Shown piece after piece: positions 19,947 through 25,457 of a DNA stretch of 64,000 nt. The notes beneath the pieces were generated by a model. It searched no databases. It worked only from the letters and a program-made list of their open reading frames with translations, and had not been told where the DNA came from. The stretch comes from Hydrurus foetidus (taxonomy: Eukaryota). Every line of letters begins with the position of its first letter. Within the stretch, counting starts at the first letter, position 1. The stretch is from positions 186,001 through 250,000 of the forward strand of contig UYFQ01000001.1 of assembly GCA_900617105.1 (NCBI GenBank), in the 5' to 3' direction. The translations under genes were made by a program, and so were the position numbers.

Positions 19947-20491
19947 GCCGCACTGGAGCGGCTGTTGCGGTACTGCGCCCGCCCACCCTTGCTATGGACC
20001 GCCTTCGCAAAGAGGGCGCTGCCCTGGTGTACCGCTGCACCAAACAGCATAGCGAGCCAAGCAGTGACAAGCGTGGCGCCAAGGTCAACGAACTGCACCT
20101 CACGCCGCTGGCGCTGATAGCCCGCATTGCAGCGCTGGTGCCACTGCTAGGCCATGCGATGCCACCCCCGCCAGAACCTGCGCCACCCAAGCGTTCACAG
20201 GCGCATTACCTGTGGGCGGTGTTGATCGCTCGTATTTACGAAGTGTTCCCGCTGTGTGGTGGGCAGATGCGCCTGATCGCATTCATTACCGAGGGTACGC
20301 AGATCAGGCGGATTTTGGAGCACATCGGTGTCGACTCGCAGCCACCACACATATCCCCGGCACCCGGGCCACCGCTGTGGGATGACTGCGATGCGCAGAT
20401 GGATGACGGGGCGCAAATCGAGCCAGCAGACTGGGATCTGGCGGCGCAACCGGCACCCGACTACGAGGTCGATCAGCGCATCAGTTGGTGA
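19941..20491 (+). mobile_element. IS91/ISCR-type transposase C-terminal remnant
   Basis: DRAALERLLRYCARPP, LTPLALIARIAALVP, WAVLIARIYEVFPL, MRLIAFIT, IRRILEHIG; frameshifted and internally deleted. Confidence 0.8.
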
Positions 20492-21983: not shown

Positions 21984-22228
21984 TGCTCTATTGTTGCATC
22001 TGAGTCAACACAGAAGTGCCCTATTGGCTCTTTTCATATTGAGAAATACTCTCTACAGTCCATGCCATTCCCACCTGCGGGTGCCCCCAATACTTCACCA
22101 TCTTTAATCCAACTTAAATCTAAGGAGAACCTTATGCCCAAAATTTGAATACTGCACAAGAGCGCGCTCAAAAATGGTTGGAGATTATTGAAAACCCTAA
22201 AAAAGCGTTTTTTAACTTTGGAGAAAAA

Positions 22229-22786
22229 ATGATTACAGCACTTTTTAATACACTAAAAAAATATACAAATGGCCGAGTAATGCTAGTATTTTTAGCATTA
22301 AATATTCTGTTTAATATGCTAATCGCGCCAATCATAGGAGGTAAATTAGAAGAAAATTCTGGTGGCACTGGTCCAATTGATTTATTATTTTCTTATACAC
22401 CTGAAAAAGTATATTCTATGATCGAGTCTTACGGCGATGAAGCGCGTAACATGTACCGCACATACGCTTTGACAGGCGATATTATCTATCCTATCGTTTA
22501 TTCAGTATTCTTTGGTCTGCTGATTACTTGGCTTTTTCAACGTGCCTTTGCACCTAACAGTAAAATGCAAATGTTGAATATTATCCCTTTTGGTGCAGGT
22601 TTGTTTGATTGGCTAGAAAATATAAATATCGCGACAATGTTATCGCTATATCCCTCTAAACCAACCATCGTTGCACAATTGTCGTCATCCTGTACAAGCA
22701 TCAAATGGAGTTTATGCGGTGTGAGTATTGCACTCGTACTTATAGGGTTTGTGATGGCTTTGAAAAACGGATTTAAGAAGCAATAA
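22229..22786 (+). CDS. AT-rich hypothetical membrane protein, horizontally acquired
   Basis: Four TM segments, DIIYP and FDWLEN motifs; strongly AT-rich versus flanks. Confidence 0.8.
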   Translation: MITALFNTLKKYTNGRVMLVFLALNILFNMLIAPIIGGKLEENSGGTGPIDLLFSYTPEKVYSMIESYGDEARNMYRTYALTGDIIYPIVYSVFFGLLITWLFQRAFAPNSKMQMLNIIPFGAGLFDWLENINIATMLSLYPSKPTIVAQLSSSCTSIKWSLCGVSIALVLIGFVMALKNGFKKQ

Positions 22787-22797
22787 AAACATGGAAG

Positions 22798-22838
22798 CCG
22801 GGGTCAGATACCGTCTTGAAAGTCAACAGTTCTGACTG
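22798..22838 (-). mobile_element. Relic right end of a second copy of the IS110 element, with its target half-site
   Basis: 40/41 identical to 23022-23062. Confidence 0.9.
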
Positions 22839-23014
22839 GCTTTGTTGCACAAATACGTTGCAGGCCAAGGTTACCCCAGCCCCAGGCGAGGCTACGCCAC
22901 AGCGACCGTCACAGGACGCCCCAACTTGGTAAAGCGGTTGAGTACCGCCGCTAGCACTTGCAACTCCACGACTTGACTCTTAAAGGTTCGCGCCATGACA
23001 CGTTCGCCCAAACA
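22838..23014 (-). mobile_element. IS5 family (IS903 group) 3' remnant with terminal IR
   Basis: Translates LGERVMARTFKSQVVELQVLAAVLNRFTKLGRP; IS903-like end GGCTTTGTTGCACAAAT at 22838-22854. Confidence 0.8.
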
Positions 23015-23027
23015 CAAGAATCCGGGA

Positions 23028-24113
23028 TCAGATACCGTCTTGAAAGTCAACAGTTCTGACTGAAAATTTGACGGAATCTGCCATCAAGGTGGCGGTATTT
23101 TTAGCCCAGTTTGGATCAAACGGTTTGCGCGTTTTCAAAACGCCGTAGATCAAATGCAGCAATTTATGCATCGCCGCAGCAATGATGGCCTTGGGGGCCA
23201 TGCCTTTTGCTCTCAAGCGCAGCGCCATTTCCTGAACCAGCGGGTTGTAACGAAGTGCCACCATGCCAGGCATGTACAGCGAACGGCGCAAATCCTCATG
23301 CCCACGCCTGCTGATCATGCCGCGCCCCTTTACGCTGGTGCCTGACAGCCGTTGCTGAGGGCATACACCGGCAAAAGCACTGAGGGCCTTTGCACTGGTA
23401 AATCGCTCTACATTGCCCGCATAAGCCATGACTTTGGCAAGCGTCACTGCCCCTATGCCTGGGATACTGGCGAGCAACTGGGCATCACTGTGCAATTGAG
23501 GCTCGCCCGCAATGTGGTCGTCAATGGCCTTTTGCAGTGTCTTGATCGCGGCCTCCAGATAGACCACATGCTCGCGAATGTAGGTCTGCGTTAGCTTGTC
23601 GCCCGTTGCATGAGCTGCTTCCATGCGGTTGACTTCTTGCTGGTGCATGTCTTTGAGCGCTTGCAGCCGCTCTACCAAGCTGCGCAGTTGGCGAATGGCC
23701 ATGCTGGGTGGACACCATGGTTCGGGCGCAAGCGCGGCGCAAAACCGTGCAATCAAGGCGGCGTCTGCTTTGTCAGTTTTGTTCCGTGTCAGCTCGCTTT
23801 GGGCAAATCCCTTCACACGGGCTGGATTGACCACACTGATTCGCCATCCAGCATCACACAGCCAAACGGCCAATGCTTCGCTGTAGGGGCCTGTGGCTTC
23901 TAAACACAGGTGCGCTTGGCTGAGCGTCACGCCATCTTCAAGTAGCCACGCTACAAGTGCTTTGAACCCTGCAACATTGTTACTGAACACCTTGCTTCGA
24001 AACTTCCCATGCCGCAGGCGTGCGACATCAAGTTTGAGCTTGGATACATCGATACCCACATGCACGTCAGTCGTTGCCAAAATGCTTGATTCAGAAGCTT
24101 CGTTACCATTCAT
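23028..24113 (-). CDS. IS110 DEDD recombinase/transposase
   Basis: GIDVSK, LEATG, KTDKADA (DEDD), SIPGIG, SGTSV (catalytic Ser region), LYMP. Confidence 0.97.
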   Translation of the reverse strand: MNGNEASESSILATTDVHVGIDVSKLKLDVARLRHGKFRSKVFSNNVAGFKALVAWLLEDGVTLSQAHLCLEATGPYSEALAVWLCDAGWRISVVNPARVKGFAQSELTRNKTDKADAALIARFCAALAPEPWCPPSMAIRQLRSLVERLQALKDMHQQEVNRMEAAHATGDKLTQTYIREHVVYLEAAIKTLQKAIDDHIAGEPQLHSDAQLLASIPGIGAVTLAKVMAYAGNVERFTSAKALSAFAGVCPQQRLSGTSVKGRGMISRRGHEDLRRSLYMPGMVALRYNPLVQEMALRLRAKGMAPKAIIAAAMHKLLHLIYGVLKTRKPFDPNWAKNTATLMADSVKFSVRTVDFQDGI

Positions 24114-24310
24114 GATCCACCTCGTATGCGGGCTCACCAGCACAAGGCAGCGGCCCAAGTTACCGTTCGATCTTTGATGGAACGAATAATGGATCGGGGG
24201 ACTTATCTGACCCATGAGCTTCAATGCTCAAAGTCTTGCCAGCCTCTCCCGACCCAGCCTGTTCAATCAAACAATTCAAGCTTAACTGCTCGGCAGATTG
24301 AATATACGAG
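23030..24310 (-). mobile_element. Complete IS110 family element (IS621-like) bounded by CT cores
   Basis: Left end CT-CGTATATT, right end ACGGTAT-CT on the minus strand; no TIR or TSD; long non-coding left end. Confidence 0.92.
24114..24296 (-). ncRNA. Predicted bridge RNA (target- and donor-binding loops); ends approximate
   Basis: Guides LTG 24231-24239, RTG 24207-24213, LDG 24158-24166, RDG 24121-24127 match target and donor; each pair is separated by a hairpin. Confidence 0.85.
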
Positions 24311-24548
24311 GTCTTGCAATGACGCATCCACGATGCTGATCTATGCGTCCTGTCCGAAATAACCCCTTAGCCGCTCATTCCTTGGGCGCGACTAGCTACA
24401 GAATAGATAGCATCTAAAGCGTAAAAGCTACCCGCCACCCCTTAGCCGTTGGCTGGGGTTTGGGGGGCCGCAGCTTGCGCAGAGATGGGTCAGTTCTTTC
24501 ATCGCAACATTAAAACCACGCCACTGAATCCCCCTCTAAAATTTCCCC

Positions 24549-25457
24549 ATGCAGTTCCTGAACCCTCGCACCGACTTCGCCTTCAAGAAAATCTTTGGCT
24601 CTGACCACAGCCACGGCATTTTATTGTCGTTCCTGAACGCGGTGCTGGCATTGCCCTCGCCCATAGAGTCCGTCGTCATCCTCGACCCCTACCAAGCCCC
24701 TGCCATCTTGGGCCGTAAAAACACATTCGTCGATGTACGGGCCAAAGACACCACGGGCCGACAGTTCATCATCGAAATGCAGGTACTTAACGTCCCCGAT
24801 ATCGAAAAGCGCGTCCTCCTCAACGCCTGCAAAAGCTACGCCAACCAACTCGCCATTGGTCAAACCTACGCTGCACTCAGCAGCGTCATCGCACTCACCA
24901 TCACCGACTTCATCATGTTCGATGACCAGCCGGACAGGGTGCACCGCATCAAACTGCGCAACGACCACGGCGATACCTACAGCGACGACATCGAACTGGT
25001 CTTTGTAGAACTGCCTAAATTCACCAGCACCGAGGACGAACTCACTACCCTGGCGGACAAATGGCTGTACTTCCTTAAAAATGCCTAAGACCTGCAAGTC
25101 GTCCCCACCGCGCTCCAGAGCGACCCCCAGATCCAGCACGCCTTTGAGATTGCCAACCGCGCTAGCCTGACCAAGGAAGAGGAAGAAGAACAGTTTCAGC
25201 GCGAGATGTACATCGACACCATGCGTCGCTTCATGGCGGCCGTGGAGGCGCAAGAAAGCAGGGAAGTAAAAAGCAAGGCGGAAGGCCTTCATCAAGGAGA
25301 GACGCAGGCTTTGATAAAGCTGCTCGGCAAGCGTTTTGGTGCCATCCCCGCAGACCTGTTAGAAACAATAGAGCACGCCGATCTGACTCAAATCAGTGCG
25401 TGGTTTGACTTGGCGATAGATGCAACCAGCCTGCAGCAGGTATTTGGCGGCGCGTAG
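24549..25457 (+). pseudogene. Rpn family PD-(D/E)XK nuclease with in-frame stop at 25086-25088; C-terminal DUF4351-like ORF 25206-25457 intact
   Basis: TDFAFKKIFG, DVRAKD, IIEMQV, FVELPKF, KWLYFLK; same frame continues after TAA. Confidence 0.88.

Follow-up and report, generated by a model that had tools for sequence, protein, structure and literature searches.

An IS621-type IS110 element with a predicted bridge RNA that likely targets TIRtron end-repeats

Results and Discussion

The window, by which we mean the whole 64,000-nt stretch of DNA analyzed here, carries an IS621-type IS110 element with four guides in its left end that match the element's own joined ends and its insertion site. 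Very probably, RNA-guided recombination carries it into the end-repeats, tipped with GGGGTCAG, of TIRtrons, the mobile elements of TIRYT tyrosine transposases, and into solo copies of these repeats. Through sequence comparison, we establish the identity of the protein, the matches between guides and DNA, the covariation of guide and target among homologues, and the sequence identity between the target and TIRtron repeats. A first-pass annotation of the region had suggested a natural RNA-guided recombinase, and protein, guides, and covariation support this proposal. All of its strings and coordinates for cores, flanks, ends, and the four guides proved exact on the minus strand. It had not included the second right end, the private A at 24215, or the overlap between the ORF's stop codon and the core. 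The features of the locus are summarized in Table 1.

Table 1. Features of the IS110 element and its insertion locus, in window coordinates.
Feature	Position	Strand	Remarks
IS110 recombinase gene	23028..24113	minus	361 aa; stop TGA formed by core T and flank GA
Left CT core	24309..24310	minus	
Inner right end tip: left donor ACGGTAT and CT core (23030-23031)	23030..23038	minus	
Non-coding left end, predicted bridge RNA: 5' stem-loop, target-binding loop, donor-binding loop	24114..24308	minus	
Left target guide GCAAGACTT	24231..24239	minus	
Right target guide GGGTCAG (24207-24213) and handshake dinucleotide AT	24205..24213	minus	
Left donor guide ACGGTAACT	24158..24166	minus	
Right donor guide ATACGAG (24121-24127) and handshake dinucleotide GT	24119..24127	minus	
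-10 box TATATT of predicted circle-junction promoter	24301..24306	minus	rejoined ends
-35 box TTGACT in inner right end	23045..23050	minus	inside coding sequence
A at equivalent of IS621 G72	24215	minus	private to window copy
Left arm of insertion site, inner part of TIRtron-type terminal repeat ending GCAAGAC (left target)	24311..24328	minus	
18-nt target-like flank beginning GATCCCGG	23012..23029	minus	one mismatch to right target guide
IS5-family 3' fragment and its terminal repeat, cut at 23011	22838..23011	minus	72% to ISAte1 and others
Second (outer) right end, last 32 nt of element: -35 box, left donor, CT core	22806..22837/22838	minus	
Right arm of insertion site, GACCCCGG...	22794..22805	minus	perfect match to right target guide

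Recombinase and bridge RNA

The 361-aa ORF (24113-23028) contains both PF01548 and PF02371, as identified with Pfam. Its only relatives of solved structure are IS621 (8WT6, E 6e-76), to which it is 45% identical, and ISCro4 (9T56, E 1.5e-74). All five catalytic residues are present (DEDD as D22/E72/D114/D117, with S257), as are the three residues of the hydrophobic wedge (Y280/M281/M284); the IS621 counterparts are D11/E60/D102/D105, S241, and Y264/M265/M268 (PMC11208160; PMC11208158). The protein is hence IS621-like and keeps the DEDD and serine residues, as annotated. We identified 5,141 homologous proteins among 7,999 candidates, with close homologues named from Thiobacillus, Methylophilus, Sulfuriferula, Nitrotoga, and Sideroxydans; a protein search of viral contigs returned none. 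Single-sequence structure prediction gave a pLDDT of 41.5, too low for use.

The element is bounded by a 2-nt CT core at both ends and its non-coding left end spans 195 nt. Its rejoined ends give the donor ACGGTAT-CT-CGTAT, and its flanks read GCAAGAC on the left and GATCC at the inner right end. The left donor guide is present at its annotated place, where its match to the donor had been given as 8/9. When the left end was subjected to dinucleotide shuffling, none of 20,000 shuffles gave more than two of the four guide matches. The dinucleotides following the right guides, AT and GT, are the same as the wild-type handshake bases of IS621 (A81/U82 and G166/U167; PMC11208160; PMC11208158). Likewise, a sigma70 promoter arises across the joined right and left ends of IS621 (PMC11208160; PMC11208158), and rejoining the ends here gives TTGACT-17-TATATT, a sequence match to nine of the 12 sigma70 consensus bases. 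As expected, no promoter was detected at the left end when the linear DNA was scanned. The circle joint itself was not found among the contigs of public runs, a data type that drops rare forms.

Structural analysis of the left end points to the same layout. Its single-sequence fold has a z-score of -2.7 and contains the three expected stems. The minimum-energy structure of the naked RNA keeps the guides closed, with mutual pairing of the two target guides. The mean unpaired probability of the guides (0.33-0.58) compares with 0.38-0.60 in IS621 itself, and opening all of them costs approximately 10 kcal/mol. In the consensus structure derived from 18 aligned left ends, both target guides lie in an open internal loop. 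Of 24 stem pairs, 16 are altered on both sides in a compensatory manner, a value matched in none of 500 shuffles, with the structure being derived from the same alignment, which favors a high score. This alignment (A1) was built from 21 loci, 20 of which were parsed, and excludes L006 (left end same as L005), L288, and IS621; L285, L290, L292, and one unpublished locus fall outside the 21 loci parsed for guides. Guide matches, shuffles, and covarying stems all agree with the annotated IS621 bridge RNA layout, in which left and right target guides are followed by left and right donor guides. The annotation had also anticipated guides that are single-stranded in internal loops of a covarying fold; the stems and covariation are borne out, and the guides are closed in the naked fold, as in IS621. 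A search of Rfam with the left end gave no match.

In the IS1111 group, the guide RNA lies in the right end and there are long subterminal inverted repeats. Such an organization was not found here: left-end guides and an ORF that extends to the right core characterize the element, whose two ends share no inverted repeat.

Insertion locus

The annotated right target GATCC would require a G:T wobble with the right target guide. A direct repeat family (D1; 45 nt, 96%) locates a second right end 224 bp beyond the inner one, after which the DNA continues GACCCC and matches the guide perfectly. In the contig runs X1 and X2, the right arm is contiguous with the right end, the flanks are identical to those of the window, and the 224 bp are absent. 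As a result, we assign GATCC to the inner junction, and the site is most likely GCAAGAC-CT-GACCCC; a tolerated wobble at the window site was rejected. X1 and X2 come from one study, possibly close to the source, and so are not independent of each other. They contain several distinct flanks, the right sides of which begin GACCC among those listed. The element body in these runs has four to five times the depth of the flanks, which serves as a rough guide to copy number only.

Three explanations for the 224-bp block were considered. It may well have arisen in two steps, an IS5 element first inserting into the right end and a deletion then occurring between two IS110 copies, though we hold this at slightly under even. 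The IS5 terminal repeat marks the exact start of the outer right end, as a plain IS5 insertion predicts, and this counts against a second scenario, in which the recombinase itself made the block by adding a right-end-bearing unit at an occupied junction through half-match recombination. The expanded element could then carry the block as cargo. We regard such an origin as a credible minority reading. It draws on the doubled right ends seen 224-629 nt downstream at the window locus, L277, and L278, three of the eight clade loci for which 800 nt or more of downstream sequence were available, and on publications reporting half-match insertion and expanded IS110 loci whose repeat boundaries are left-donor-only. 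The IS5 is cut internally, and this calls for a further event. Public contigs run past 23011 into ordinary IS5 sequence.

It is also conceivable, but rather unlikely, that the block is an assembly chimera joining repeats and that the real locus is simple, as in X1 and X2. No contig bridges the 23011-23030 junction in any of seven contig runs, the X1/X2 flanks are identical to the window's, and the IS5 fragment has no depth in these runs. However, the window copy differs from the X1/X2 consensus at 13 places, which indicates that it represents another strain or copy. In addition, the 23011/23012 joint occurs in no repeat of the window, and similar doubled ends are present in independent assemblies.

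Several other features were observed around the locus. At a loose end in X1/X2 (window 22836/23060), a contig retains no more of the right end than its last 31 nt, with an inverted repeat tip ahead of it. In this contig, GGGGTCAGA and TCTGACCCC flank the right end to give a hairpin-like unit of 40 nt, which may be a hybrid mini-element combining an IS110 end with TIR tips. At another loose end (window 22818), a different contig has nothing in common with the element but the final 13 nt of the right end and GACCCC; in that sample it probably marks a second IS110 lineage whose donor and target are the same. Immediately to the left of the site (24549-25457, plus strand), an Rpn/PD-(D/E)XK gene (PF12784) is split into ORFs of 179 aa and 83 aa (DUF4351). 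Directly right of it (22145-22786, plus strand) is a low-GC, membrane-like ORF of 213 aa with no Pfam match, and the region looks like a spot for acquired DNA. A 165-aa ORF (19994-20491, plus strand), likewise with no Pfam match, presumably resembles the C-terminal part of an IS91/ISCR-type transposase.

Guides and sites across relatives

Nearly identical guides are shared by 14 of the 20 parsed elements, namely the window element and 13 relatives at 56-68% identity: the right target guide is GGGTCAG, the left donor guide ACGGTAACT, and the right donor guide ATACGAG. The right junction is visible in 11 elements of this clade, nine of which continue GACCC; the two exceptions, the window element and L277, each have a second right end that does so. 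In run X4, one contig continues CT-CATG after the right end, which is off target.

More distant elements have other guides and other flanks, and the two match. Comparison of 11 distinct left target guides with their own flanks yielded agreement at 68 of 77 positions against 42.9 when permuted (2/200,000 permutations), in a test that allowed +/-1 base for every pair and did not control for relatedness. This agreement, together with the target GCAAGAC-CT-GACCCC, upholds the suggestion that the target is unlike that of IS621. Inside the clade alone, guide-flank covariation is not significant (35/42 vs 31.7, p 0.07), and L277 and L281 match their left flank at just four and five of seven positions.

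Some clade members vary in their ends. The left core of L007, L279, and L283 is TT instead of CT, matching a TT in the left target guide, and the clade seems to accept both. Three clade right ends (L088-L090) occur within approximately 7 kb on one contig of a viral collection, with partial recombinase genes. A 12-mer left-junction pattern searched over 401 genomes gave mostly chance matches, with IS110 at one of 30 loci fetched, and a left-end DNA search of 151 family-level genomes returned only the two already known. The right-junction pattern in viral contigs had IS110 at three of 123 loci, all on one contig; this pattern is GA-biased and was excluded from counts.

TIRtron repeats as the probable target

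The reverse strand of the most likely programmed target, as read from the guides and sites, begins GGGGTCAG and fits the motif GGGGWSAS. Inverted repeats with GGGGWSAS tips flank the TIRYT genes of TIRtrons (TnpA-Y1 subclass 2.1; Di Nocera 2013 PMC3733652; Quentin 2018 PMC6006769). In two Thiobacillus genomes, the 14-mer target occurs in clustered inverted pairs, with 13 and 11 matches at up to one mismatch compared to 0 and 4 for controls. To locate TIRYT genes, we used a TIRYT-like protein from G443 containing PF01797 and a weak C-terminal HTH, which matched in 54 of 301 genomes. Thirty loci were fetched, including 26 with at least 100 nt on both sides (one being the query's own). The target was found within two mismatches on one side at 21 of these 26 loci and on both sides at 17, while the reversed-pattern control gave none. 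The repeat family in other genomes thus combines GGGGWSAS repeats, a Y1 gene, and a C-terminal HTH.

The empty site of the window, reconstructed from the left arm and the outer right flank, agrees with both repeats of the TIRtron L301 at 25 of 26 nt, which extends beyond the 14 bases read by the guides. In G373, a relative lies about 40 nt upstream of a frameshifted TIRYT gene, within the upstream repeat; nothing is inserted in the downstream one. In G443, the guide, the site of insertion, and the local repeats share the start ACAAGAC. In G333, the guide GTTAGAC and site GCTAGAC agree with the repeats of one TIRtron (TCTAGAC); another TIRtron there has TCAAGAC. As the predicted guide RNA matches TIRtron end-repeats, the element likely uses them as landing sites.

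The window itself contains no TIRYT gene, and its site is a solo arm. It contains no further exact target, two hits with two mismatches (chance level), and 15 GGGGWSAS motifs against 16 expected. A TIRYT gene was found in four of the eight host genomes checked, the completeness of all eight being unknown.

It is very unlikely that the TIRtron match is incidental, with the guide recognizing a short motif and insertion following at any occurrence of it. Such an account fits the viral contigs, where most exact 15-mer matches lie outside inverted pairs and a TIRYT hit was obtained at 0 of 77 loci, as well as several homologous sites that lack repeat likeness past the guide-read bases. Against it, a TIR profile places the 18 bases of the window site outside the guide-read part within the top 0.02% of positions in the window, and six of 13 homologous sites within the top 0.3%. 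An inverted arm with up to three mismatches is also present just upstream at four of the 13 sites, and the G373 relative is inserted directly in a TIRYT repeat.

Two further observations concern the repeats. On a 7-kb contig (L263-L267), the target repeat occurs many times in paired copies; those stretches that were examined for TIRYT yielded neither a TIRYT nor an IS110 hit. Short tandem stutters of repeat tip and flank occur to the right of the tip in L005, L197, L263, L278, and run X3, in which GACCCC often becomes GATCCC in the second copy.

Integrity of the window copy

The element had been annotated as intact, which holds for the ORF and only in part for the RNA. Position 24215 is A in the window and G in all 17 other rows of A1, and G is also found in public contigs among those listed there. 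In IS621, the equivalent G72 is a conserved syn-G that is bound and read by the Tnp domain (PMC11208158). As the A is private and the base conserved, the window copy may be impaired, and its RNA may be weakened by this change. Of the eight RNA bases that contact the protein (A43, G48, A67, G72, A116, G121, A150, G155), seven appear to be kept in A1, the equivalents being matched by motif because IS621 is not a row of A1.

A stronger version of this reading holds that family and mechanism are as described, but that the window copy is a decaying relic, in which the G72-equivalent and other private changes disable the RNA or protein, leaving it movable only with the help of sister copies. We consider this possible, with the balance somewhat against it. 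Besides the A at 24215, itself one of the 13 differences from the X1/X2 consensus, the recombinase has three private amino-acid changes relative to X1/X2 (G265, P334, K349) and the locus is rearranged on its right side. Conversely, the ORF is open, the catalytic and wedge residues, donor ends, and promoter boxes are kept, the remaining conserved A and G positions in the RNA appear to be retained, and seven of the 12 coding differences from X1/X2 examined are silent.

Predicted mechanism and target-supplied stop codon

The last residues of the ORF are QDGI, and in each of the 12 clade loci found by protein search or given (window included) that show a right junction, the TGA consists of the core T and flank GA. 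In the circle, 13 of 13 elements are predicted to have a reading frame that extends into the RNA region, by 26-78 codons overall and by 49 codons in the window element. A role for the left-donor-guide mismatch in stopping circle read-through was rejected, as its TAA is the stop in only two of 13 elements.

On the model of IS621, weak read-through would enable excision and the element would form a circle, in which the joined ends would create the TTGACT-17-TATATT promoter for transcription of the bridge RNA. A recombinase tetramer would then exchange strands at the CT cores between the donor ACGGTAT-CT-CGTAT and the target GCAAGAC-CT-GACCC. Insertion on target would supply the stop codon of the gene, whereas the circle would encode a protein 49 residues longer. 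The window copy appears to have landed in a solo repeat arm and to have gained the 224 bp later, comprising the target-like flank, IS5 fragment, and second right end. With this second right end, two circles of 1279 and 1503 bp are predicted, which would share the same donor junction.

Relationship to known systems

The mechanism of bridge recombination was published in 2024 for IS621 of E. coli (Durrant 2024 PMC11208160; Hiraizumi 2024 PMC11208158). The window element resembles IS621 in its domains, DEDD/Ser/wedge residues, CT core, and left-end bridge RNA with target (LTG-RTG) and donor (LDG-RDG) loops, as well as in its AU and GU handshake, predicted junction promoter, and likely use of a repeat family as natural target. 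It differs in its 45% identity, its donor ACGGTAT-CT-CGTAT, its TIRtron terminal repeat target (a GTAG REP in IS621), its right target guide of 7 nt compared to 4 nt, and the lack of a non-coding right end, its ORF running to the core. ISCro4 / IS622 belongs to the same recombinase family (E 1.5e-74; Perry 2025, 10.1101/2025.05.14.653916; PDB 9T56); it is 88% identical to IS621, whereas the window element falls in a separate betaproteobacterial group.

ISPpu9 and ISPpu10 of Pseudomonas putida are IS110-group elements that also insert in a dispersed repeat, and in ISPpu9 repeated end boxes give rise to alternative circles, which parallels the prediction made here (PMC12288879; 10.64898/2026.03.19.712850). 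Unlike the window element, both target REPs and ISPpu9 forms no junction promoter; ISPpu10 requires a stem-loop in its target (same sources). Expanded IS110 loci (10.64898/2026.08.14.744561; 10.64898/2026.08.31.748434) have extra units beside the transposase with a left-donor-only boundary, as in the window, but the extra unit here is 224 bp long and includes an IS5 fragment, with no intact cargo gene. For TIRtrons (TIRYT), the GGGGWSAS repeat tip is the target here, the flanked genes carry PF01797 and a weak C-terminal HTH, and the TIRtron is the host element (PMC3733652; PMC6006769); the available portions of these two papers make no mention of IS110 insertions in the repeats.

Bridge recombination and the targeting of REP repeats by IS110 are thus already known, and TIRtron repeats as a target class are little documented. 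Our literature search, with subscription journals and ISfinder outside its scope, found no paper naming IS110 targeting of TIRtron repeats; the 72 orthologues of Perry 2025 may include the clade. In the searched part of the Durrant 2024 supplements, the same donor is present and about ten listed targets read CT-GACCC without a label, while the exact target and left guide are absent.

Significance

The present findings leave the known mechanism of bridge recombination unchanged. For genome-editing screens, the element offers a useful group of orthologues that share just 45% identity with IS621 and have a right target guide that is longer by nature, and the target-supplied stop provides a simple testable idea of how insertion might feed back on the recombinase. 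More tentatively, and with real doubt, the betaproteobacterial bridge-recombinase clade could be a specialized parasite of TIRtrons: its target guide would track the local repeat variant, its gene would end only via a target-supplied stop so that insertion and circle proteins differ, and its doubled right ends would pick up neighboring DNA. TIRtron end-repeats probably represent an added natural target class for bridge recombinases. As the TIRtron's own enzyme is uncharacterized, the IS110 element and the TIRtron may be studied together as a host-parasite pair of mobile elements.
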